A model generated the notes under the pieces. The model saw only the letters and a program-made list of their open reading frames with translations. It did no database searches and was not told where the DNA came from. A program made the translations under genes and the position numbers. A DNA stretch of 64,000 bases from Eledone cirrhosa (taxonomy: Eukaryota): the NCBI GenBank assembly GCA_964016885.1, contig OZ024752.1, positions 13,268,001 to 13,332,000 on the forward strand, written 5' to 3'. Every line of letters starts with the position of its first letter. Positions within the stretch are counted from its first letter, which is position 1. This document shows, piece after piece, positions 4,306 through 64,000 of this stretch.

Positions 4306-7045
4306 TATTAAAATAACAGATTAAAGTTTAAGCAAAGAATCGCTGCTTTCACCCTTAACGGGATCTTCTGAAACTAACAAAGTCAATCTGTAAACGCAGA
4401 AGTGGATATTTCAAAAAACGTTGCAACCGGAGGGAGACAGGAAGACGATACTTTGGTTCGTGGAAACGTTCCCTGGCAAAGAACGGGAAAAAACGAATAT
4501 AATACGTCATTACCCTACGAAGTCCGATTTAGGTAGACTTAGTAAAAGGATTCTTGATAGAATTATACCTGAAATTAGAAGTTTGGCCCCTCTTGCACTG
4601 TGGAACAATTCTTTCGCAGTGATTGATTGGTTCAACGGCATATGCAACAAGGAACATTGCCGTTTTATCCAATTCGACATCAACAATTACTACTCCTCCA
4701 TCACTTTACCACTTCTCCTTAGAGCTATCAATTTCCCTAAAACACTCACAGTGGTTAAGGATTTCGAAGTTGATGTCATCCTCAATGCCCGTAAGTCGGT
4801 GATTAATTTCGACGACTCTATTTGGATTAAAAAATCCAATAGTACCCCATTCGACGTGAGTATGGGCGCCAGCGATTCTGCGGAGGTTACTGATCTTATC
4901 GGCCTTTTCCTTCTTTTCTCTATCAAGGACGAATTCCCCAACGCGGGCGGCGGTGTGTATCGTGACGATGGTCTTTTGACCATGACTAAGTGCGGACCTC
5001 GTGCTTGCGACAGGTTCAGAAAAGAACTCACAGCCTTCTTTAAAGGCTTCAACCTCTCTATACAGGTTGAGGCCAATCTCTCGGTCGTTAATTACCTCGA
5101 CGTTACCCTCAGTTTATCGAATGGGTTGTATTACCCGTATAGAAAGCCGAATGATACGCTTAATTACATAAGTAAGCATTCCAACCATCCTGCCAGCATA
5201 ACTAAGAATCTGGTAAGAAACGTTTCGTTGAGGCTTTCCCGTCTATCTACTAACGAGGATATATTCAACGACCATTCCACTTATTACAATGAAGCTCTTG
5301 CTCGGAGTGGATTTGTCGATAAGGTAGCTTATACAGAGTACGAAAATAGACCTAGAAGTAATAGATCTCGTCGCATTTGTTGGTATAACCCACCATATAA
5401 TATGGAGGTGGCCACACCATTAGCTAAGATCTTTCTTTCCTTTATTACGAAGCATTTTCCCCCTACACATAAATATAGTAACATTTTTAATAGAAATACT
5501 AATAAAATTTCTTACTCTACGACTCCTAACCTTGCACATAACATCACAGCTTCAAATTTAGCTAAACTACCTAGCCGTAGGAACACGTGCAACCCTGTAG
5601 TTAGTACTAACTGTAATTTTAGGATTCGGGTTGATTGCCCCTATCCGGGAAATGCCTCTCTAGTAACATTGTCTACAAATTTAAGGTTGAAACACCCACG
5701 TCCCGTAGGGCATACATAGGGTTAACCGCCAATAGATTCAAGCAGCGTCTTTACATGCATACCCATTCTTTTCGTTACCCTCTAAGAAGGAATATGACGT
5801 CACTTTCAGCTTATATCTGGAATCTAAAAGACAACCACACCCAATTTAAGTTACACCGGGAGATCCTAGCTAGGGCTAGATCGTATAACGGAAATAAAAG
5901 ACCGTGTGACCTCTGCGCCGCTGATCCCTGGAAATACTCTACGCCACAGACCACATCTTAAACAAAAAATCTGAGGCAATTTCGGCTTGTAAACATAAAT
6001 TGCGCAAAACTTTCCTGTATTACAGCCCCACGTTATACCCTAACGGATAGTACGATCTATATGTGGATATTTTACGTCTTGATGTGGTAGCTAAGTATAT
6101 GTTTTGTTTATATCATTACTTATTTGCATAGGTAAGTATATATTACCTGTATGTTTTGTGAAGGTACGTATACTTTCTCGTACGTATATTTGATTGTATA
6201 TGTTATGGCGTATAATTTTTTATATATTCTGGTACATACGGTTTGGTTATGTGTGTACGGGAGTTTTGCGTCTGTGTGAGTATGCAGGTTCGTTCGTATG
6301 TAGGGTGTGTGTATATGTGTACTTCATGTTTTGGTTGACGTTGGTCTCCGAACATTTGTGTATTTACATGTAGGTATGTGTGTGCGCTTGTTATATACGT
6401 ATTTATTTATTTATATACGTTTATTTAATTATTTATTTATTTGTATACACACACACATTTTTATATGTGCGTGGTTTTGTATACCTATGGCAAGTGTTTT
6501 CGCGTTTGCTCGTGTATGTACGTATTTGCATGCGTGTATGTATTTATTTAATTTCTATTACCTTTGTATTGTATTTTATTTACTTTATTCTTAACTCTGA
6601 AGCGGAGATTCATTCGCTTTCCTAGTAAGAATTTTAGTCTACGACTTCAGTTATACCATTTACGTGGTTTTGTCTTTGCGTGCAATTGTTCTCCACGCCC
6701 CACATATGACGTATTATCTTCGTTTTTTCCGTTCATTGCCAGAGAACGTCTCTATGAACCACCTCAGAGAACAGTAGTCTACGACTTCTTTTATACAATA
6801 AACGTGGTTCTGTCTTTGCGTGTAATTGTTTTTCACCGCTCCAAATAATGACGTATTATATTCGTTTTATTCCCGTTCTTTGCCAGGGAACGTTTCCACG
6901 AACCAAAGTATCGTCTTCCCGTCTTCCTCCAGTTGCAACGACTTTTGAAATATCCACTTCTGCGTTTACAGATTGACTTTGTTAGTTTCAGAAGATCTCG
7001 TTAAGGGTGAAAGCAGCGATTCTTTGCTTAAACTTTAATCTGTTA

Positions 7046-7091: not shown

Positions 7092-7152
7092 TAACAGATT
7101 AAAGTTTAAGCAAAAATCGCTGCTTTCACCCTTAACGGGATCTTCTGAAACT

Positions 7153-10100
7153 CCATTGGATCTCTGAAGATCCATAGTTGCCGTCAGTGTGTGAAGGAGT
7201 GCAAGTCTCTAGCAGGCTTGAAAAGCCATATCTGAGGGACGCTCCGATATGGCTTTTCAAGCCTGCTAGAGACTTGCACTCCTTTACACACTGACGGCAA
7301 CTATGGATCTCCCTGGCTTGAGGTCCTGCATCAGGTTGGCCGTGAACCCTCGCAATACCTTGGAGATCATAGTTCACTGGTTCTCTTTGAACATGGCTGC
7401 GACTGTGGCTCCTGAGACCAGATTTGCTCAAGCAAATTTTTCTACACTCAGGGCACTTCAATTTAATGGACACACCGATCGTTTCAAGAGATACACCAGG
7501 GCATTGCTTACGCACATCCCGATTGATCTTCTCGTGCTCTATGCGTCTGTCCTCAAAATTATGGACCTCATCATTCACTATTCCACGGCAAGTTTCTCTT
7601 CCAAGATTTTCTATCTCCCAGTCAGCCATCATCAAACCAGTTTCTTTCAACGAGTTCTTTACACAATCATTGAATCGGAGCCCTGGCTTGTGAGATGGTC
7701 TCTTACCCTCACAAAGCTCGCAATACAAGAGTTGTTTTGGGATTTGATCATCCTCTATTCTGCAGAGGTGTCCGGTCCACTGCAAACGCCGTTGGTGGAT
7801 GACACTCTCAATGCTCCGACACTCACTTCTCTCAAGGCCCTCAACATCACTCACATGCATCTGCCACTTGATACCGAGCATCTTTCTGAGACACTGCTGG
7901 TGAAACCGTTCCAGTCTGTAGATATGCCATTTGTAGGCAACCCATGTCTCACATGCATACAGCAAAGCTGACATTACACATGCAGCATACACTCTCACCT
8001 TGGTCCTCATTGTGATTCCTCGCCTGCACCAAAGACGGTCGTTGAGCCTTCCAAATGACTTACTTGTCTTACTAACACGTAGACCAACTTCTGCATCCAG
8101 AGAGCAGATCACACCCAGAGTACTCCCTAAATACACAAATGTGTCAGCAGCCTTCAGCTTTTGACCGTATACGTGTATGGAGGGTTCATTGAAAACTTTA
8201 TCCGGAGCAGGTTGGTACAAGACGACAGTCTTCTTCAGACTGATTGTCAGTCCCAAAGCACTGCACAAATGGAAAAAGAATCCATAAGGTGTTGCATATC
8301 ACTCTGGGAGTGTGCAAAGAGATCACAATCATCAGCATATAAAAATTCTCTGATCAAGGTACTCAGTACTTTAGTGTTGGCACTGAGACGCCTAAGGTTA
8401 AACAGCCTGCCGGAAGTGCGATAGATACCGTGTTGACAATCCTTGAAGGCCATGAAGAACACCATCGCGAAATACAAGGCAAACAAAGTTGGTGCAGGTA
8501 TATCACCTTGTTTAACACCATTTTCAACCGAGATTGGCTCAGACAGTTTACCTGCAACATTCACCCATGCCTGCATGTCATCGTGGAAGAGTTTCAGAAT
8601 GTTCACAAACTTTTCAGGACAGCCCAATCTCTCCAAAATAACCCACAAAGCCTTCCGATTAACGGTGTCAAATGCCTTGGTCAGATCGACAAAAACTTGG
8701 TATAAGTCCATGCGCTGCTCAATGCATTTCTCTTGAAGTTTTTTGGCCGAGAAGATCATGTCAACAGTGCCTCTGCCGTTTCTAAAGCCATATTGGGACT
8801 CAGGAAGTACCTCAACAGCAATGTGCTGTATCAATCTGTCCAACAATATCCTGCACAAGATCTCCCCAGCCACAAATAGCAGTGAAACACCTCTGTAGTT
8901 GCCACAGTCATCTTTGGCTCCCTTTCCTTTGTAAAGTACCACCATCAATGCATCTTTCCAATTCTGTGGCACATCTTCATTCCAAACATTCACAAAGAGA
9001 TCAATGAGGCGGTTTAAGAAGTTATCACCAGCACACTTGAAAATCCCGGCACTCAGTCCATCCATTCCAGGTGACTTGCCGCTGTTTAATTTGGCAATGG
9101 CCTTCGCCACCTCTTCAAATGAAGGAGGATCAGCCATTGCCAGCTTTGTAGGTCTGGATGGAATCGACCGGATGAACTCATCATCAATTTTTGATGGTCT
9201 GTTGAGAGGCTCATCAAAGTGGTCATGCCACCTGATCAGGATTTCCTTCAGATCTCTGAGCAATTCCTTGCCGTCCTCGGAGCGAAGTGGTGATATTCGT
9301 GAACCGGTCAGACCATACACATCCCTGAGCAGACTGTATAGGCACTTTGTATCATGTCTATATGAGGCCTTCTGGATTTCATCAGCCTTTTGGCTCCACC
9401 AGGTATCCTGCATGGCTCTAAATCGATGTTGCAGACGTGCCTTGATCTTCCTGAAGATCCTGTCACTCCCATCAGAACGTGTCTCACACAACAATCATGT
9501 CAGCACTTTTTGTTTCTCTTCAAGCAAGGTCTGGATCACTGGATCATTTTCATCGAACCAGTCTTTATGCTTTCTATTGGTATGACCCAAAACTCCATCA
9601 CTAACATCATAGACGGTTTTCTTCAATGATTCCCAAGTGTTTTCACATTCCAAGGACTCAAGGGACCTCGACGGCTCAGCTCTGACTTTCAGACAAGCCA
9701 GGTTTAGTTTTTTTTGGAAGTGCAACCTTCTTCGCCCTTACTTTGGGCTTCACAACAAATTGAAACCTGGCGCGCACCAGACGATGATCAGTCCAACATT
9801 CGGCACCTCGCAATACACAAGCCAACGTGATATCCCTGATATCACGTTTTCTCGTTAAAACAAAGTCAGTAAGGTACCACTTCTTGGAACCTGGATGCAT
9901 CCAAGTTGTCTTATATTTGTCTTTCTGCTGAAAGAGCGCGTTCCCAACAACAAGATCCATCTCAGTGCACATCTGCAACAGTAGGCCGTTGTTATTCCAC
10001 TTACCTACTCCATGCCTGCCCACCACACTCCAAGATTCCCAGTCATTACTAACACGTGCATTAAAATCACCAAGGGTGACAATCTTGTCTGCATAAGGTA

Positions 10101-11135
10101 TACCATGGATGACCTCTCTCAAAGACATGTAGAAACTTAGTTTTTCATCATCACTAGCACACACAGTAGGAGCGTACACACTGACCAGAGTCACAAAGCG
10201 GTTTTGAATCAGAGGGACATTATCCGATCATTGAATCCACAACGAAGATTTTCTAGCTTTGAGACGATTCCATTCCTGACTGCAAATGCCACCCCTGCTT
10301 CTCTCCTGCAACCCTCTGCTCCACCACTCCAATAGAAGGTATATCCTTCCTTCTGTTCTGTGAATTGACCCTCACCTGCCAATCTCGTTTCTGAAAGAGC
10401 AACGATGTCCATGTTATAACGATCGAGTTCCCTCGACACCAAAGCAGATCTTCTTTCAGGGCGAGTTTTACTGGACTGGGAATCCAGTAAAGTTCTTACA
10501 TTCCAACATCCAATATTCAGAGGTTTGAAACTCCTTGCATTTGTAGCATGACGACCGGGCCCACGCTGCGGTGCCATGGGACACCTGCCGGGCCAGACCC
10601 CTTCACAATAAGTTCCAGAGCCCTTACTGCCATTGACCTCAAGGCTATCATCTGTCATCATAGAGTTTGGTGCACTTTTAGGCTATGGCCAGCCACACGA
10701 ACCTGTAACAGATCCTGAACAAGCGATGCCTGTGCATTGAAGGTTTTTTAAAGTGGGGAAAGGCCTTGCACGCGACCAATCCCACTCTCTGAGCATCGAA
10801 AACACTACCCGAAAAGGAGAACTGGTCAACATCATCGGATGCTTCCAAAGCTGCAGGTTTTTTTTCATAGTTTCCCTCTCCTAGAAAGGTGTTGTGACAA
10901 CAACAGGGGACCCTTCACTCCCAGGTAAAAAAATAAAGTACTATTGGATGGCCCTTGACTCTGCTGAGTTCCTCCGCCCTTTGACGGGTCTTGTATTTCA
11001 TCCCACAGGGTGTCCAAATATCACCCTCCCCACCAAGCAAGCTTGGTGGGGTTGCCGATTAAGTCGCCGACGATCCGACCATGAAGCAGGTAGTACCGGG
11101 TTACATGTTACCAGTAGCACTCGAGAGCAACCTGA
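7153..11135 (-). mobile_element. Near full-length degenerate RTE-clade LINE (5' UTR, APE, RT, C-terminal C2H2 fingers)
   Basis: APE motifs GCWNVRTL, ALSETR, SVYAPT, GDFNARV, WTDH; RT motifs GKSPGMDG, NYRGVSL, FVDLTKAFDTV, GVKQG, YADD; CPEC..H..H; spread over several frameshifted ORFs. Confidence 0.92.
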
Positions 11136-44935: not shown

Positions 44936-45034
44936 ATTTGTTTATTGAAAAAAACCAACAAAGATTTAAAATAATAGGTCTGTTTGGGAACAGGTTTTGA
45001 ATTGACCAATAGAAAGGTAGTGAGTGGTCAATCC

Positions 45035-45556
45035 ACTGTATGTTTCATTAAAAGCATTTTGAAGACCTTATGCTATTGTTTTAGAGTAGTGACAATGTCA
45101 CTTATTTAAATTTTCAGCAAACAGAGGAGATAATCTGACAGAATTCTGTTTCGTACTTTTAGGTACTTATCAAAGTTCACTTCTCCTCCTACTTGCTGAA
45201 AATTATGTGTGTTGGATTCTTATAGAATTCCAATAATAATCAGGAACTGATTATACAGAGCGGTCACCGGTCCAGCATAAATTGAAAATTAGAATTGGTG
45301 CTCTGAAATAGTGATATATATATGAATGTATATACAGTGTATTTTGCAATACACTGTATGCTTAAAAGCATTTTGAAGACCATACGCTATTGTTTTAAAA
45401 TAGTTACACTGTCACTTATTTAAATTTTCAGCAAACAGGGTAGATAAACTGACAGAGCTCTGTTTCGTACTTTTTGGTACTTATCAAAGTTCAGTACCCC
45501 TCCTGTTTGCTGAAAATTATGTGTGTTGGGTTCTTATAGAATTCCAGTAATAATCA
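45035..45556 (-). repeat. 314-bp diverged dimer homologous to the 310-bp array, with variant HHRs (45132-45178, 45446-45492)
   Basis: Shares ggtcttcaaaat, ctatttcagagca, ggaccgg..accgctct and attctataag with the array; core TTGATAA-gtac..gtac-GAAA-cag....ctg-TC. Confidence 0.8.
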
Positions 45557-45650
45557 GGTCTTCAAAATGCTTTTAATTAAGCATATAGTGTATTGCAAAA
45601 TACACTGTATATACATTCAAAATACACTATATATATATAGCAAGGGAGAA

Positions 45651-45694
45651 ACCGTCTATGCATTTCAGGCTTAACTGGCCTTCGTCAGGACGGT
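45651..45694 (-). ncRNA. Minimal type I hammerhead ribozyme
   Basis: accgtc-CTGACGA-aggc(cagttaa)gcct-GAAA-tgca-TA-gacggt; all helices pair perfectly. Confidence 0.88.
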
Positions 45695-46006
45695 CCCTCC
45701 CACCGCTTACGACTGCTGGACTAGAAGACAGGCGAGAAAATATACTTTTCTCGTCTGTGTAAATGAGGTGATTAATCTCATTTGCATATGAAACTGCATA
45801 AGTTGGCTCAACTTATAATGAAAAAGAAATAGGATTTCGCTTCAAGCATAGCTTTATAAAATATGTATAAATATTTCGTATCTCCAAGGAAATACGGTTT
45901 TAGGAAGCCGTAGCTATGCAAACACCGGGGGGGTGGGGGGGGGGGGGACTAACGCCCTCTGGTAATGTCCTCCAGCAGAAGCAAGGGGGACAACCGTATA
46001 TGTATA

Positions 46007-47880: not shown

Positions 47881-48959
47881 TATATATATATGTATATATA
47901 TACGTATATATGCATGTATATATGTATATACATATATGTATATATATATATGTATATACATGTATATATATGCATATAGATGTATATTTACAACACCACC
48001 TGCCTCTTTGAGGTCAAATACCAACCCTACTAGCATCTACAAACTGACCAATGAGAATTAAGACTATTCCTGCTGACAACATTAAATTATTCCTAACAAG
48101 CTCATATGTCCCAAGGCTGTGATACCATCAACACTATAAACACAGAGCTGGCATATCTAAGAACTGACTAACTACCTGATGAGGTCATAGCCATTCAATG
48201 GCTATCATCGAAATATATATGGCAGTAAATAAAGGTAATTATTACTATAGGTAAGTTTAAGTAATTATTACTATAGGTAAGTTTAAGTAGGAATCCCACG
48301 GAACTCAACATTGCTCTCACTGATCATTTCTACGCATTTCTCCACAGCAAAATCCACGTCAATAGATGGATACAGGGACACAACATCCATACTACCTATT
48401 ATGCAGTTTGTTAGGGCCCTAGATCGGTTACTCACGCCGATTCTGCTGAGGAGGTCCTCCGTGCTGTCACATACATCTGGGGACATTTCGATGATGGGGC
48501 GTATGATCAGGGAGAGGAAGTAGGACAGTCTGTAGTTACTAGCAATGTTAGCTCCACAGACTGGCCGTGTTGGTGGTCCCGCGACAGGGTCACTGCCCGT
48601 TTTATGGTCTTTTCGAAGCCCATACAACGCCGGCACGTCATTGTTCCAGGCTTGGAAGTTGTTGGCAGTCCTTTTGTTGGGCTGCATTATATTCGTCCAC
48701 ATCACCATACGGGCATTGAGGGCTTTTTCTCTATCCTCATGCTCCTGTGGTGTTACCTCTCTTGTGTTAGTGATGTGGGGTTGCATTGCCTGGATGTATT
48801 TTGGCAGGCTGTCAACTGACATTCTGCCAGACTTGTCTGTTGGAAAGCATGCTATCTCTCCATTACGCGAGCGCTGCATGAGCTTACGCAAGCCATTTGC
48901 AGATTTTTCTCCCAGTTGCTGGGCCTCCATTCTATTATGCTTCTTGCTATACTGTTCTA

Positions 48960-50403
48960 TAATACCTCAATGGCCAAGAAAACCCACACAGATAGATGGA
49001 ACGGGTGGACCAGAGCCATACGGACACCCGAAAACCACGATGAACTGAAGAAAATGATTGCACATGCGGTAGGGGCCAGCATAAAACTAACCCTTAAGGA
49101 ACATATGTTCAAATTTAATGGAAAAACATATGCCCAAGAGGAAGGAGCAGCCATTGGTGTTAGCATTGCAGGCGACATAGCTAACTTATTCATGGTATGG
49201 TGGGACAGTAGACTTAAACTTAAGCTTAAAGAACAATTAGAAGACCCCTTAACCCTGATAATGTACTCCCGCTACGTTGATGATATAAACATCGTAGTTA
49301 AGACACCCCCACTAGAGAACAGTCAAGAACTAGAGAAAAACACAATGGAAAGCATCCAGCAAATAGCTAACTCCATCCACCAGAGCATTAGAGTTACTAT
49401 AGACTACCCTAGTAAACACCCCAACCATCGATTACCTGTACTAGACACAGAGCTCTGGTTAGATACCATTAATAACAAAAAACAAATCCTCCATTCCCAT
49501 TATGCCAAACCCATGACTTCCAAACATCTGATCCACCGAAACTCGGCCGTTTCGGACCATACCAAAATCAACATACTGATTGCGGATTTGGTACGGGTGA
49601 TGAGAAACGTGTCCCGCATGTGCAACCCCGAAGAACTAGAGAGACACATACAACACTTCATCCACCGTATGCAGTTCTCTGGCTACAATCAGAGAGATAA
49701 AATCAGAGTGTATAGTGGAGCCAGAACCAAATGGGAAAAAATGGTAAATAATGACATAAATGGGACCTGCCCCTTGTATAGGAGCAAATTTTGGAATAGA
49801 ATAGAAAGAACTAGGAACAAGGCTAATAGAATAAACTCATGGTATGATAGCAAAAAATACCAGAGTGTAATGTTCATCGATACAACCCCTAGAGGTGAAT
49901 TAGCTTACAAATTTAGAAGGGCCCTAAATAAACATAAACTCAATATTAAGATAGTAGAAAAACCAGGTACCTCCGTAAAAACACTTATTAGCAAGACATA
50001 CCCTTTTCAAAGACCCTCATGTATGGATAAGAAATGTATAACCTGTAAAATAAGCCCCCATATTAACTGTAAAACTAGAAATGTAGTGTATAGCATAAGA
50101 TGTACTGAAGGACAATGTAGAGACAAAAATATAGTGTACATAGGTGAGACAGCTCGTAGTGTAGGGGAACGGATAAATGAACACTGGCGAGACCTTCAAG
50201 ATAGTAAAGAATCATCTGTACTCTACCAACATGCTAAAATAGAACACAAGGGTAAATTAGAGAACATAGAAATAAAAATAGAATCTACACACAGAAAAGA
50301 CGCAATGTTTAGACAAATTACAGAGGCAATAAACATAAAAGAATTACAACCAAAATTAAATAGAAAATATGAGTGGAACAGCAACATCACAACTTACAAT
50401 TAA
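48960..50403 (+). CDS. Uninterrupted Penelope RT (C-terminal half) + GIY-YIG frame, N-terminally truncated by the inversion
   Basis: ORF 48916-50403; homology starts at TSMAKKT. Confidence 0.75.
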
Positions 50404-54365: not shown

Positions 54366-56990
54366 TCTTTCTTTATTTGCCACAGGGGCGTACAAAAATG
54401 GGACAATACAAGACGTGACGGCGGGGGTTTTACATAAAAATAACTTTAACATTAATAAATAACAATAAACTATATATAATAAAATAACAATTGAAATCCC
54501 CAATAGGGGGGAACGTTACTGCAGGGTTGTTTTACACCCCGTGGATAGAACAACCCTTAACACCAGGAATAGGTTTTGTAGGTGTTCCTATCTCCCCTCT
54601 GTTAATCTTCCTCAACCTACAGGTGTATATACAGAGAAGGCCCATTTTCGCCACATTCACCCACCTTTCAGCCAATTTATAGGGGTGTAGCACCTCTCTC
54701 TCCACTCTCACCTTCCTTCTGAAGTGATACTTAAAGAAGAGGATAAGTTGTTGCCCAGAAGGTGTTTGCCCTCAGTCCTTTTAACGTTGTCCACCATATT
54801 ACCTCTTTCGCCATAGCCACCAGACAGAGGAAAACCGCCTCTCCTTCGTTCTTAAATGAAGGCGGCGGGCTGATCCTCACGATGGAGTCGGCTGACAACT
54901 GGATGCGTCCCACACGTGACAGCAGTTGTTCGACATAATTCCACAGGTCGGTCACCCCGGGGCACTGAACAATTGCGTGCAGAACGGTTTCGATGTCCTG
55001 CTCGCATCTTGGACAGGTCCTTTTGGCAGGATCTCTGCCAGGGCGTCTGTGCTTGTAAATTTTGTCTGGAACTGGTAGAGCTCCTCGGTAGCACTGCCAG
55101 GGCAGAGACCTCTGGAAGTTATCCATAGGCCCTGGACGGAAAGTCCTCCCGAACAGGCTGGTCAGTTCGTCCTCCTCGATGCCTAGAGTTTCCCCGAGAA
55201 CGTCGTCGCACCTATCCTCCACTAATCGCCTATAGAATGTCGAAGTGGAGTCTCCGCTGATTGCCGTTTCCGCTTGGTAGAGGGCTGCGAGCGCCTGTAG
55301 GCACTCGAGGTGCCAGGCACCCATTTTCGGTCTTCGCTTGACCCAGGACTGCAGCTCTGTTAGTGAGACGAGTTGTGGAAGAACTCGTCTCACAAACGAC
55401 AGCTACACCGGTTCACCGGTCAGGAATACCTGCGCTTCATCAGCCAAGGCATGCCCAGCCCTCCGTTAGAAGGGTGTTGACAGCAGATGGGTCTCCTCAC
55501 CAATGGAGCCTGTTTCTTCCAGAGGAACTTGATGAGTAGGCGTTCCATTTTGGTAAGGTATTCGCGGGGCCAAGGCACGACTGTCAAGCGGTAAAAGATG
55601 ACGGACGCTATGTAAGTGTTCGCCACCTCCGCTCGACCTTTCAAGGAGAGTTTGCACTCAGCCCATTTCTGGGTGAGTGCAAACACCTTCGCCGTAACCT
55701 CGTTCCAGTTCTTGTCCACCTGGAGGTCTGGACCAAACCAGACCCCGAGCAATTTCACCGGTCCTTCCGTCCTGGGCCTAACGTCACTGTCGGAAGGCAT
55801 GGGTTTGCCTCTCCATGTGCCGAGTTGCAAACCGACAGACTTGTTTGGGTTTAGTCTTGCTCCTGTCAACGTTTCGTATTCCTGTAATAGGTTGCCGATT
55901 ACCCTGATTTCCGAGGTTTTCGACACTATTACGGTTATGTCGTCGGCATAGGCCGACGCTGCTTTCCGCAGTCCTGATTCGATCGGGATGCCCTGCAACA
56001 GCTTTAACTTGCGCAGTAACGGCTCGAGAGTCAGTACATACAGAATGGAGGAGAGAGAGAGCATCCCTGACGGATGGAATGCATGATTTGGAATGGCTCT
56101 GATAGGTAACCATTCACCTTGACTGCCGAGCAGATGCTGGTGTGCATGGCAGCGATCCAGCCTCTGAAGACGGGACCGAAGCCGGCCGCCTTGAGAACTG
56201 CTTCCAGGTATTGATGGTCGACACTATCAAATGCCTTAGACTGATCTAAATTGATCAGAGCCCCACCGAAGCCAGGTTTACACCCTACCCTCTCTATGAT
56301 GTATCGCATGAGGTGGAGGTTGTCATGTATGGACCTGGTCGGGATTGCACACGTTTGGGCTTCCCCTACCAGGTTCTCGACGACAAGCGCCAGCCTTGCT
56401 GCTAGCACTGTGGCCAAAATCTTTAACTCTGTGTTGAGCAGAGTTATGGGCCTGAAATTGCTTATCTCATCCCCCTTGTTCGACACTATCAAATGCCTTA
56501 GACTGATCTAAATTGATCAGAGCCCCACCGAAGCCAGGTTTACACCCCTTTCGCAGCTCTCTGCATCCGTGCTCGAGAGTCGCGATACGCCGTCGAGGTA
56601 GGAGCTGAAGTCCATCACCTCGCTCGAAGTACCACTTTGCTCGAACAGTTGTGTAAAATGCTGCTGGGAAGGCCGTGCACATCTGCTTGGATTCAAGTAT
56701 AATGCGTCCATCGTTGTCTTGCAAAGACGGAATTGTGGATTTGTTGCCACTTTTCGCCTCTGCCACTCGGGCCCATCTAACAGCTTTGGCTCCCTCGTTG
56801 CTTAGAGCACGTGTTCTACTTCTGACAATACAACCTTCGTGTTTCACGTTGAAGAACTGGTCTAGTGTGGTTCTCGCCGCTAGCACGCAAACTGTACTGC
56901 CATTCCTAAGTGCCTCTTCTATTTTAACTACCAGTTCCTTTTCAGTTTTGTTTTTTTCTAAAGGTACTTCCTTGCTAAATGCTATCGATC
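54365..56990 (-). mobile_element. Degenerate 5'-truncated Tx1/L1-like LINE (RT + zf-RVT) between (GATA)n tracts
   Basis: NFRPITLLN, LDQSKAFDSVDH, SIRQGC.LS, AYADD, LSLKGR, GGLGMP, CPRC..ETVLH..C; (gata)n at 54312-54364 and 57005-57057. Confidence 0.9.
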
Positions 56991-57003
56991 CTAAATGCTA
57001 TAT

Positions 57004-57744: not shown

Positions 57745-59933
57745 ATATTGTTATATTTGGGGAGGGTCATATTTGCGTAATATTGCCAGAATTAATAACA
57801 GAACACACTCACTGTTTGGTTGGTTTTCGCTTCTCGCTGTCTTTTATATATATATATCTGCGATCTAACTTACTCGGTCCTCAATGTTGCCATTGACTGA
57901 CCGGCGGTCAAAAATAATACAGATACAATATAGACACAAACACATATATATAGTTTACATAATTTACATAAATCTTTCGTTGCACATCTGCAACATCGTC
58001 AGTGGTGTTATATTCATTGTTCCTCCTGTTGTGTTGTATGTCTACGCCATTTTTTTTGTTCAGTCTGTCTATATATTTATTTATTTATTTGCTTGTTTGT
58101 TTATCTTATTTTATTTTGTCTTCTTTGCGCATGCGTTTGCGTGTGTGTATAGTGTTATGTGTGATGTGTGACTAGTGTGTATAGTGTTGTGTCTGCTGGG
58201 TGACTAGTGTGTGTTTATCTGCTTGTGTATGTATTTATTTATCTTATTTTATTTAATTTTATTTACTTATTTATACTTCTCTTAGGTCAGTGTTGTTTGT
58301 TTGGGTGTTGTTGTTGTTCCACTCATTCTTTCTGTTTAGCTTTGGTCTTCTAATTTCTATTTCACTGGCCTCTCTGATTTGCCTATCTGCTGGGTCATTC
58401 CTATGTTTAGATATTATTCTAATTTCTATGTTGTCTATGTTACCGTCATGTTGTTGTCTAGCATGTTTGTATAGTACTGACCCGTTTTTTCGTCCTTTTA
58501 GTTCCCCCCAGTGTTGGTCTATCCTTTCACCTATGCTACGAGCTGTCTCACCTATGTATGTTGTTGTCATGTTTCTGCAAGTACCCTCTGTACATCTTAT
58601 GCTATAGACTACGTTTCTAGTTTTACAGTTTATCCGGGGGTTCACAAATGATACATTTCCTATTGGTATAGTGGGTTTTCTTAAAAGGGTAGGTTTTGCT
58701 GATCAGGGATTTTATGGTGGTTCCTGGCTTTTCTACCACCTTTATTTTTAAGTGGGTCTTTCTCAGGGCCTTTCTACACTGGTTAGCTAATTTCCCTCCA
58801 GGGGTGGCGTCCACAAACATGACACTCTGATATCTCTGGTTGTCGTACCATGATGTGGCCTTCCCTATCTTATGTCTAGCCCTATCTAAGCTATTCCATG
58901 ATTTGCTCCTGTATAGTGGGCAAATTCCTTTCATGTCCAGTTCTATGAGGGTCTTATACTTTTCCATGGCTCCTTCGTATACTCTGACTCTGTCTCTTTG
59001 GTTGTAGCCAGAGAACTGCATGCTGTTGATGAAGTGTTGGATGTGTCCTTCCATTTCTGTTGGGTCGCACATGCTGGACACATTCTTCATCACTCGTACC
59101 AAATCTGCGATCAGAATATTAAACTTAGCACTACTGGACATTGCTGAGTTTTTGAGTATCAGGTATTTGGAGGCCATGGGTTTAGCATAGTGTGAGTGGA
59201 GAATTTGGGCTCTCTCGTCTATAGTGTTAATCCAGAGTTCTGTGTCTAATACAGGTAGTCTATTGTTAGGGTGTTTGGAAGGGAAGTCTATAGTTACAGT
59301 TATACTCTGGTGTATGGAATTAGCTATCTGCTGGATGCTTTCCATCGTGCTACGTTCTAAATCAAACTTGTTAGTGCTCTCTAGTGGGGGTGTTCTTATA
59401 ACTATATTGATATCGTCTACATAACGAGAGTACATGATGAGGTCTATGGAGCTTTCATTAAGGAGATCTTTAAGTCTCCTTTCCCACCATACCATGAAAA
59501 GGTTGGCAACATCACCAGCTATGCTGACGCCGATGGCTGCTCCCTCATTTTGGGTGTAGATTTTCTCATTGAACTTAAATATGTGGCCCTTTAGGGTAGT
59601 TTTGATACTAGCCCCTATTGCATGTGCGACCATTTTTCTTACCTGATCAGTGTTTTGGGGGGTCCGTATAGCTTTGGTCCACCCAATCCACCTTCCTATG
59701 GGAGTCTTTTTAGCCATTGAGGTTATGGTGGGGGGTCTACCTCTTATAGGTCTACTAGGGCAGAAACATCTAAGGTCATGGCTGTCTAGGTAGTCAGTGT
59801 CGTAGGTAAGTCTAAGTAGGAGGCCCAGTTCGTCTGTGTCGACGTCGCAGAACTCCACCTCACTCTCAATGATCATCTCCACACATCTTTTCACAGCAAA
59901 ATCAATGTTAATGGATGGGTACAGTGACACCAT
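57745..59933 (-). mobile_element. 5'-truncated Penelope-like element (sister of 48286-50860), frameshift near 58640, pLTR 58270-57745
   Basis: VSLYPS, GAAIG, YVDD, YIGET, RQIREA; pLTR near-identical to 2378-2900; HHR-like core at 57975-58002. Confidence 0.92.
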
Positions 59934-59949
59934 ATATATATATATATAT

Positions 59950-60422
59950 ATTCAGGTTTGAGGATCACCACTGGATAGAGCTGGTCAATTCCGTATGGTC
60001 AATCTTAATGTAAGAATATGGAGAGTACTCAACGTAAAGCAGTTCAACCGTCTTTGTTTTTGTAGTTGGTGGTGCTATTACGGAGTTAAATATTATAATG
60101 AAATGACAGGAGGCTGGACTTGTGTAAATCCTTGAAAGGTTTATTATACTATGATCATTTCAATGACCGGGTTCCGTATGAATCCGGTGATATCATCAGG
60201 TATTCGAAATATAATAAGTGAAGACTTGAGGGCGACCGGCAAAGGTGGAAGATGCTGGATGGCCGTCGTCCCCATGGATTTTATCTATTACATTCACTTA
60301 TTATATTTCGAATACCTGATGATATCACCGGATTCATACGGAACCCGGTCATTGAAATGATCATAGTATAATAAACCTTTCAACGATTTACACAAGTCCA
60401 ACCTCCTGTCATTTCATTATAA
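59950..60422. repeat. pLTR-like foldback with opposed HHRs
   Basis: 60090-60222 is the reverse complement of 60295-60425; family shared with 34480-34830 and 39786-40092. Confidence 0.85.
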
Positions 60423-61846: not shown

Positions 61847-63559
61847 CTAACAGTGCTGCGATCGAATGTGGCTTTTTAGCCCAGCCAATGATCCAAAATG
61901 TCTTGCACAGAGTCGGCAACCAAAACATTTACTGGGAATAGTCGGCTGTGGTTGGAGTTCGTGTACTTTTGCATGTCGCTTGAGTCCTCCTGCTGATTTA
62001 CATTCTCTACCACATGTTTGGCAAGCATGATGAGTAGCATCTCCAACAGCAGCCTGGTAGTCAACCACTGGTCTTACTTTATGACTGCGAAGATGACTTT
62101 CGAGTCCAGCTTTGCTTAGGCAGAGTCTCGCACAGACGCTGCATGTCAGAAACATAGGAGGACCCTCGCCGTCTGGAAGTGCAACAGCAATACCCTTCCT
62201 CACGTCCCGCTTTACTTTCTCGTGTGCGATTCGAGATGCCTCAAAGGCAACTTTTCCCTCATATACAGTCTTTCTCCATTTATTACGATCAGCAGCAATA
62301 TTTTCCCATGTATCAGCAGAGATGTTAGCGTCTTTCAGAGAGGCCTTCAAGGAATCCTTATACCTCTTTTTTGGTTTATGTGGCGGTCGTTTTCCTTTAA
62401 CCAACTCTCCATAGAAGAGTTGTTTTGGTATTCTAGAATCCTTCATCCTGGCAAGGTGACCACTCCAACGGAGTCGCTGCTTAAGCACAAGAGCTTCTAT
62501 ACTGTCACACATAGAGCTTTCCAAAATCTCGACATCACTGATGTGGTCCCTCCAGCGAACGCCATGTATCCGTCTGAGACACATCTGATGGAAACGCTCC
62601 AATTGCTTAAGGTGGCGTCGATATGTGACCCAGGTCTCGCAGGCATAAAGAAGACAAGAGAGTACACATGCCCTGTACACCCTTACCTTTGTCCTCCTGC
62701 ATATGTCTCGCCGACCCCAGAGTCGCCTTTCTAGCTTTCCGAAAGCATCACTTGCTTTCCTAATCCTAAGTGAGATTTCACTGTCAAGGTTGCCGTATCG
62801 ATTGACAGTGCTTCCCAGGTAGACAAACTGATCAACCACTCCAAGTCGTTTGCCATACACATAGATGTTTGGTTCAGTGTACTGCCTACCAGGTGCAGGT
62901 TGGTACATGACGACGGTTTTCTTGAGACTGACAGTCAAACCCAGGGCAGTGCAAGCGTCAGAAAATACATTCAAAATGTGCTGCATATCACTCTCTGTGT
63001 GCGCTACAAGATCGCAATCATCTGCATACAAGAGGTCTCTTATGACTGATGTAAATACTTTTGTCTTCGCAGCAAAGCGCCTGATGTTAAATATGCTGCC
63101 TGAGGTTCGATATCGGATGTAAACACCATGCTCGCAATTCCTGAATGCAATACAGAAAACCATTGCAAAGTATATGGCAAACAGGGTCGGTGCTGGAATA
63201 TCCCCCTGTTTCACTCCATTTTTTACTGAGATAGGCTCCGACATGTTACCTCCGACATTAACCCAAGCCTTCATGTCGTCATGGAAAGACCTAACTAAAG
63301 CAAGGAACTTATCAGGGCAACCAAGTTTCTGGAGAACCTTCCATAATGCATCTCTGTTGACAGTATCGAAAGCCTTTGTCAGATCGACAAAAACCTGATA
63401 CAGATCCAAGCCCTGTTCAATGCACTTCTCCTGGAGCTGTCTAGCTGAGAAGATCATATCAGTAGTGCCGCGTCCAACACGAAAACCAGATTGACTTTCA
63501 GGAAGGACACAATCTGCAATGTGTGTCAGCAGACGGTCCAGAAGCACCCTACATAAAAC
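61847..63559 (-). CDS. RTE LINE RT + three C2H2 zinc fingers, uninterrupted but 5'-truncated (3' UTR and tail extend to ~61590)
   Basis: PESQSGFR, FVDLTKAFDTV, GVKQG, LYADD, YLGS, LYACETW; CSVC..H..H, CQTC..H..H, CRLC..H..H. Confidence 0.88.
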   Translation of the reverse strand, partial: VLCRVLLDRLLTHIADCVLPESQSGFRVGRGTTDMIFSARQLQEKCIEQGLDLYQVFVDLTKAFDTVNRDALWKVLQKLGCPDKFLALVRSFHDDMKAWVNVGGNMSEPISVKNGVKQGDIPAPTLFAIYFAMVFCIAFRNCEHGVYIRYRTSGSIFNIRRFAAKTKVFTSVIRDLLYADDCDLVAHTESDMQHILNVFSDACTALGLTVSLKKTVVMYQPAPGRQYTEPNIYVYGKRLGVVDQFVYLGSTVNRYGNLDSEISLRIRKASDAFGKLERRLWGRRDICRRTKVRVYRACVLSCLLYACETWVTYRRHLKQLERFHQMCLRRIHGVRWRDHISDVEILESSMCDSIEALVLKQRLRWSGHLARMKDSRIPKQLFYGELVKGKRPPHKPKKRYKDSLKASLKDANISADTWENIAADRNKWRKTVYEGKVAFEASRIAHEKVKRDVRKGIAVALPDGEGPPMFLTCSVCARLCLSKAGLESHLRSHKVRPVVDYQAAVGDATHHACQTCGRECKSAGGLKRHAKVHELQPQPTIPSKCFGCRLCARHFGSLAGLKSHIRSQHC

Positions 63560-64000
63560 TATACATACATATATACATATATACATATATACATACATAC
63601 ATATAAAGTATAGATATGTGTGTTTGTGTATGTGTGTATGTGCATGTGTGTTTTGTTTTGATGTTATCCGGCAATTGACGAAATCAGGTGTGAAAGTATG
63701 TGTATTTGTGTGTGTTGCCCGTCCCTCTGTTTCTCTTTCCCTGTCTCTCTTTCCTCTCTCCTCTCTCTCTCTCTTTAGATGTGTGTGTGTGTGTGTAGTT
63801 TTCCTAATCTGACTCTTTCACTCTCTGTCTCTCTAAGAGGGTTGCCTTTTGATGTATGTATTACCTGTTTGAAACGGAAAGGAAAAGAGTATTGTCATAT
63901 AGAGAGTGAAGAGAGACAAAGAGTAAAGCAGTTAAATTATAGAGAGGGTGAAAGAGGGAGAGAGAGAGACGACGCTCAGCTTTATAATATTATAGATATA

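Follow-up and report, generated by a model that had tools for sequence, protein, structure and literature searches.

Analysis of a 64,000-nucleotide stretch of the Eledone cirrhosa genome (hereafter the window) revealed on its minus strand a repeat that is probably a non-LTR retrozyme with a U3-A8 hammerhead fold, the RNA of which is predicted to cut itself and which was likely copied into (TA)n by a Penelope-like enzyme. The repeat belongs to a genomic family with subfamilies; its members carry sequence compatible with the hammerhead fold, end at two fixed sites, possess inverted arms and are flanked by TA repeats. The copy in the window is an aged, decayed representative of a high-copy, non-coding tandem repeat of about 320 bases. 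The footprint left by insertion, which the original prediction had not mentioned, turned out to be a more useful result than the palindrome that it had flagged.

The original prediction described a minus-strand dimer at 45035..45556. Two units 314 bp apart are indeed present, forming an array of approximately 1.7 units on the minus strand, but the flagged extent omitted an inverted arm through which the insertion continues to 45639 (Table 1). Copies A and B are 88% identical to each other over 216 nt. Over the true unit, no fetched copy exceeds 92% identity to copy B, the long branch of which in the family tree reflects in part an artefact introduced by 46 nt of flanking sequence. The units are short and tandemly arranged with one hammerhead each, as in retrozymes. 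Since there is no ORF of at least 110 aa over the unit, it is non-coding, and the 2-kb bin that contains it has a GC content of 29%, below the threshold of 50%. No ORF for a reverse transcriptase (RT) or GIY-YIG endonuclease was found in the unit, which thus does not qualify as an autonomous Penelope-like element. Genome-wide, a DNA similarity search yielded 3518 first-look candidates, and the best full-length copies elsewhere were 89-94% identical (40 scored). A core pattern in which either state was allowed at positions 3 and 8 gave 2137 matches throughout the genome and 1 in the control, and the tandem period was 311-330 in 25 of 27 adjacent pairs. Counts made by CUGANGA alone would overlook more than 2000 motifs in the Eledone cirrhosa genome. 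Three sequencing runs of unspecified type yielded thousands of diverged contigs, which carry no information about expression. Long, diverged U3-A8 tandem arrays were seen at two loci, L121 (G000:C1:82389800-82396600) and L133 (G000:C1:93462200-93466900), which would permit a test of local homogenisation.

Table 1. Positions, in window coordinates, of the U3-A8 insertion, its parts and related elements.
Feature	Position	Strand	Remarks
Copy A, upstream full unit of the U3-A8 retrozyme-like family, 314 bp	45245..45558	-	Best full-length copies elsewhere 89-94% identical
Copy B, downstream partial unit	45029..45244	-	Stops at unit position 212, short of the usual family end sites
Hammerhead A with extended helix I	45425..45516	-	
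Parts of hammerhead A	U3 45487; A8 45482; helix II 45480-45467; palindrome 45463-45452; C17 45451	-	
Predicted cut in hammerhead A	45451/45450	-	
Hammerhead B	45111..45202	-	U3 45173; palindrome with AATT centre 45149-45138; C17 45137
Scaffold common to copy A and the 310-bp unit	45245..45381	-	About 75% identity; hairpin, TA run, tail
Region with both usual family end points and the tail between	45277..45323	-	Site A in TA run (unit ~236-245), site B further on (unit 271-282)
Inverted 5'-truncated arm, back-to-back with main arm	45557..45639	+	Unit 178-236, short duplication, TA run
Sister 310-bp array	18359..20404	+	6.6 copies; C3-G8 core; 6-nt palindrome; GUA triplet; ends at site A equivalent
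Copy of third hammerhead repeat family	45640..46000	-	C3 at 45688; U3-A8 insertion abuts right after its ribozyme
Penelope-type ORFs, broken or partial, with RT and GIY-YIG motifs	48283-50403; 58271-59951; 4394-5719		Scores below Pfam cut-offs; no Pfam match at 4394
LINE-like RT and endonuclease fragments	7132-10682; 54731-56997; 61847-63817	-	Judged by eye from translations

The ends of the insertions were compared across 124 distinct loci. Of 199 arm ends, 169 fell at two sites located 26-37 nt apart, with 85 at site A (unit ~235-250) and 84 at site B (unit ~268-290). The majority continue into (TA)n, which masks any target-site duplications, expected to exceed 4 bp in non-LTR retrozymes when present, and site A is blurred by the TA run of the unit itself. 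The arms of two-arm loci were arranged back-to-back in 75 of 76 cases. When both ends lay at the usual sites (53 two-arm loci), the combination was A-B in 43, A-A in 6 and B-B in 4 (p 6e-6). The natural ends of the 310-bp family lie at the equivalent sites in 6 of 6 seen. Penelope insertions are described as carrying an inverted copy and a tail of 30-40 bp on one end, with a bias toward microsatellites, in the available portion of one report (10.1101/2021.04.23.441226), and the tail of the PAc element of Anolis has been traced to two internal RT start sites together with AT-rich nicking, according to part of another (PMC11167929). The insertions studied here show the features expected of a Penelope-mobilised element, namely an inverted 5'-truncated copy, a one-sided tail, partial tandems and an AT-rich target. 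At the level of sequence, the two-site ends and back-to-back arms are the Penelope 'tail' signature. Mobilisation of animal retrozymes by Penelope elements has so far been argued, in the accessible text of the accounts, from co-occurrence and pLTR similarity (PMC7229834; 10.64898/2026.07.22.740005). Two-site ends with a one-sided tail, in two families 25% apart, constitute a mechanistic footprint of mobilisation, and this footprint names an RNA segment to try with a Penelope protein.

No autonomous element sharing the scaffold or pLTR homology was found in the window, in the fetched loci or by means of one tail pattern; the search with this pattern returned 5 broken or mutated copies. Penelope protein fragments near some loci had no consistent position, none of the Penelope-type fragments in the window contains the scaffold, and the third hammerhead family has no scaffold in common with the U3-A8 element. 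The ORF at window position 4394 had no Pfam match and resembles Naiad elements in its motifs.

A relationship between the U3-A8 unit and a 310-bp unit, which had been proposed at the outset, was borne out by alignment. The local score was 116, compared with a shuffle mean of 19.8 and a maximum of 28 in 300 shuffles, and the part common to both units contains 105 identities over 137 nt (~75%), a value as high as which was reached by 0 of 500 shuffles. The ribozyme had also been viewed as an exchangeable module on a conserved scaffold. In local alignment, the ribozyme half was at chance relative to the 310-bp unit (69 of 300 shuffles as high), which suggested a module swap. However, the ribozyme half is colinear with the 310-bp unit in global alignment, where the two cores line up in register; an equally high value was reached by 1 of 500 shuffles (11 of 500 for the part 5' of the core). 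Because it is in register globally, the ribozyme half appears to have diverged in place, and a swap is needless. Six 310-bp copies on other chromosomes showed 2 differences each from the window unit (99% identity). The 310-bp family forms long back-to-back arrays and is much younger than the U3-A8 family; since it is very young, its partner element may still be active.

The hammerhead itself was present as first described. Both copies contain the core UUGAUAA (U3-A8), a helix II of 4 bp (GUAC/GUAC), GAA, a 12-nt palindromic helix III and a GUC triplet. The sequence of helix III is ACAGAGCTCTGT in copy A, the upstream one, and ACAGAATTCTGT in copy B, the downstream one. Helix I is extended by ~15 pairs in each unit and includes an A-A mismatch in copy B. 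Every element of a type I hammerhead core was found, specifically a Watson-Crick 3-8 pair, G5, G12-A13-A14, A15.1-U16.1 and H17, and all 12 core positions were intact in 48 of 59 copies picked by DNA similarity. The helices are foldable by prediction; helix I is interrupted by an internal loop and loop II has 5-6 nt, which would be the partners of a possible tertiary loop 1-loop 2 contact. As anticipated, a CUGANGA pattern would miss the U3-A8 core. Rfam at the gathering score gave 0 matches in the window, a null result that has little power here since the canonical ribozymes of the 310-bp unit were missed as well. Structure prediction returned a stable, self-paired circular monomer (z -3.2; linear z -5.55), and the palindrome was predicted to form a self-dimer of -20.1 kcal/mol, as compared with -1.8 kcal/mol per hairpin.

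We examined whether the U3-A8 pair is a property of the family, and this proved to be the case. Among 99 distinct cores, obtained from the first 100 pattern matches on contig C1 and thus chosen by core pattern, 93 were U-A, 3 were C-G, 2 were U-G and 1 was C-A. A lineage with a 5-nt loop contained 72 C-G, 25 U-A, 3 C-A and 0 U-G cores by hand count of the 100 of 114 matches listed, and just 10 matches combined C3 with a 6-nt loop, 8 being C-A. The C3-G8 copies make up one clade of 10 rows (support 100/99) in which the palindrome centre is GA. The clade and the counts for the 5-nt-loop lineage indicate that positions 3 and 8 switch jointly between sister subfamilies. C3-G8 is nested inside U3-A8 in the best tree, and monophyly of U3-A8 was not rejected (AU p 0.28, 49 rows). 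Three related C3-A8 copies (L033, L034, L040) with a shortened 10-nt palindrome fall in one clade, which may be a minor source lineage whose core is mismatched. Helix II occurs in three subfamily states (43, 17 and 15 copies). Along a tree of the 161 rows, out of 218 extracted, that aligned over at least 200 nt, the palindrome goes from AGAGCTCT via G-U states to AGGGCCCT and AAGGCCTT, with moderate support. Pair 5 of the palindrome is A-U in 165, G-U in 11 and G-C in 20 of 208 rows. Since pair 5 would sit in the loop of a monomer, compensation there speaks for pairing of one ribozyme with another. Of the 99 palindromes sampled, 14 have a U-C or C-C mismatch at pair 4, and mismatched palindromes occur in common subfamilies.

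Covariation among the genomic copies, put forward originally as a check, was assessed by our own tree-aware simulation of 208 rows, which contain few independent events. Pair 2 of helix II passed (137 T-A and 56 C-G of 208, E 0.0009), whereas 30 of the 31 proposed pairs failed and the top score went to a non-structural pair. Significance was lost on correction for both the 3-8 pair (p 0.026) and the palindrome pairs (p 0.009-0.033). At core positions, private changes numbered 11 as compared with 19.7 expected, a lower but non-significant value (p 0.19 and 0.31) that fits mostly neutral decay after insertion. Real compensation occurs between subfamilies and not in the flagged pair of copies.

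The latter had been called a covarying palindrome, and its change from GC to AT had been read as a sign of selection on dimer pairing. Neither claim was supported. When the central dinucleotide was left free, an AT centre was present in 2 of 1067 exact matches, one of them copy B, and palindrome-breaking single changes were present in 73 (AC 46, GT 27). Under independent decay, with the GC centre at 780-880 copies (estimated from 76 of the first 100 matches listed), 1.4-1.6 AT doubles would be expected by chance; AT doubles are thus no commoner than chance. Moreover, the AT change would weaken the predicted dimer by 4.7 kcal/mol, from -20.1 to -15.4. The broader idea of selection on dimer pairing, although it draws nothing from this double change, receives some support from the other subfamilies, but the palindrome pairs fail the tree-aware test. 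With 2 exact copies, an AT-centred palindrome was ruled out as a subfamily of its own, and five of the fetched one-mismatch AT candidates (L160, L161, L162, L167, L168) had no family context. The two AT copies (window 45137-45120 (-) and L031:1500-1545 (+)) come from different subfamilies or clades and have in common, in addition to the AT centre, two nearby changes that are otherwise rare (2 and 3 of 110), so that four identical changes lie within ~25 nt. The two copies may represent a single event, propagated by template switching or conversion. In 4 other copies, which form a set of their own, the centre is A-U with G-U on its flanks.

By analogy with other retrozymes, as presented in the available part of PMC7229834, the RNA-level steps can be proposed as follows. 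A tandem transcript would be cut at each GUC, probably best with two neighbouring ribozymes paired via the palindrome, because the copy A monomer is predicted to misfold, an inactive fold being preferred by 5 kcal/mol. A host ligase would circularise the resulting 314-324-nt monomer, a step demonstrated in other retrozymes. A Penelope RT-endonuclease would then bind the scaffold held in common with the 310-bp family and nick AT-rich DNA, and reverse transcription starting at two internal sites 26-37 nt apart would generate partial tandems and the 5'-truncated inverted arm. Selection would act on a few source elements, where compensation appears, while inserted copies such as those of the window would mostly decay. 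We further offer, as a tentative proposal in which our confidence is less than even, that a retrozyme lineage with a mainly U3-A8 core reverted to C3-G8 in one of its subfamilies with no intermediate having been amplified, that its dimer palindrome was rewritten via G-U steps, and that the two-site tail which it has in common with the young 310-bp family serves a single Penelope enzyme for recognition and priming. If true, this would be a direct genomic footprint of animal retrozyme mobilisation.

The dimer step of this scheme has a serious competitor. An active retrozyme could employ its ribozyme as a monomer, with helix III as a 4-bp hairpin, the palindrome as a by-product of the stem and no selection on dimer pairing, and we judge this possible, if on balance doubtful. 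A 4-bp helix III would be longer than the 1-2 bp given for dimer-type ribozymes in part of PMC4209133, the active monomer fold is predicted to lie 0.6-1.3 kcal/mol from the ensemble in two subfamily examples, and the loop of the C3-G8 clade is non-palindromic. However, the move of the loop-located pair 5 from A-U through G-U to G-C, which amounts to about one lineage event and is non-significant after correction, argues for pairing between ribozymes. This alternative concerns the dimer step only. A more far-reaching one, which we consider unlikely, is a Penelope-mobilised repeat for which cleavage is dispensable, where uncut tandem transcripts would serve as template and the hammerhead would be an inherited relic in slow decay or a fold that binds protein. 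Such a repeat would be consistent with the location of the insertion ends 130-175 nt away from the predicted cleavage site, with the predicted inactive fold of copy A and with the non-significant core protection among copies. Likewise, the Anolis element retained the capacity for insertion in vitro when its ribozyme was mutated, so that cleavage was not required there (PMC11167929). Against dispensability, the catalytic residues are kept in all sampled subfamilies and in the 25%-diverged 310-bp family, and the 3-8 pair changes both its members together, no mismatched subfamily having been seen to be amplified. The TA-rich targets, the arrangement in tandem and the hairpin close to the 3' end would also fit Helitron-like repeats and thus amplification at the DNA level, by satellite turnover or Helitron-like rolling circle, with no RNA step and an incidental hammerhead. 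The dispersed short arrays, back-to-back truncated arms and one-sided tail follow the Penelope pattern instead, and both of the diverged families have a hammerhead in an identical register; we regard DNA-level amplification as highly improbable.

Retrozymes, natural U3-A8 cores and the dimer model are individually known. U3-A8 in place of C3-G8 was reported in 2011 for several natural ribozymes in an article that refers to previous work on activity of the pair in vitro (PMC3088659), and U3-A8 hammerheads are given at ~1300 copies in one genome for Schistosoma Penelope elements (PMC4209133), so the rarity that had been implied for this core was overstated. The hammerhead dimer model has been reviewed (PMC6765202, available in part). 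A 2026 preprint presents retrozymes as non-autonomous Penelope derivatives and reports that 1 of 9 Xenopus dimers cleaved and 8 of 9 did not (bioRxiv 10.64898/2026.07.22.740005), which weighs against the cleavage proposed here. Like metazoan non-LTR retrozymes as described in available sections of PMC7229834 and bioRxiv 10.64898/2026.07.22.740005, the element has non-coding tandem units of 150-450 bp with one type I hammerhead each, low GC, thousands of copies, a predicted self-paired circle and Penelope elements in the genome. Unlike them, it has a U3-A8 majority core, a 12-nt palindromic helix III and a long helix I extension; the U3-A8 core and the two-site tail are both unreported for them in the accessible text of the published accounts examined. 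Cleavage and circular RNA have been shown in metazoan retrozymes, whereas here they are predicted from sequence and folds. With the hammerheads of the Schistosoma mansoni Cercyon Penelope elements the element has in common the core covariation, the Penelope context and the dimer model. The Cercyon hammerheads are described, in part of PMC4209133, as mostly single motifs without helix III and with a helix II of 7-8 bp, in contrast to the 4-bp helix II, long helix III, tandem non-coding unit and C3-G8 sister clade seen here. The 5' truncation, partial tandems, inverted 5' copy, one-ended tail, AT-rich or microsatellite targets and ends downstream of the hammerhead resemble Penelope insertions and Anolis PAc, as far as the accessible text of the reports goes (10.1101/2021.04.23.441226; PMC11167929). 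Unlike those elements, the unit lacks an RT/endonuclease ORF, and it had no autonomous pLTR partner in the window or fetched loci. The covariation from C3-G8 to U3-A8 and the palindromic helix III noted for repeat-type ribozymes also have precedents among natural core variants (PMC3088659, in part). These variants are scattered, whereas here a single repeat has either core in subfamilies that are nearly identical and that provide a ready comparison of both cores in one scaffold. Neither a retrozyme dominated by U3-A8 nor a tail signature in retrozymes was found in the literature searched, and Lunse et al. 2016 may already describe similar variants.

Additional hammerhead motifs occur elsewhere in the window. 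The third hammerhead family, a copy of which the U3-A8 insertion abuts, has a C3-G8 core, a 6-nt palindrome, inverted arms and a scaffold unrelated to the U3-A8 unit; it yielded 1739 first-look candidates, the best copies being 95-97% identical. Hammerhead-like motifs at 22735 (+), 20935 (-) and 50609 (+) passed a simple helix check, and matches by motif only were located at 34588, 39987, 60316, 60199, 39384, 38837, 48176, 51272, 51079, 2651 and 58002. Several of these hammerhead-like motifs occur in inverted pairs.
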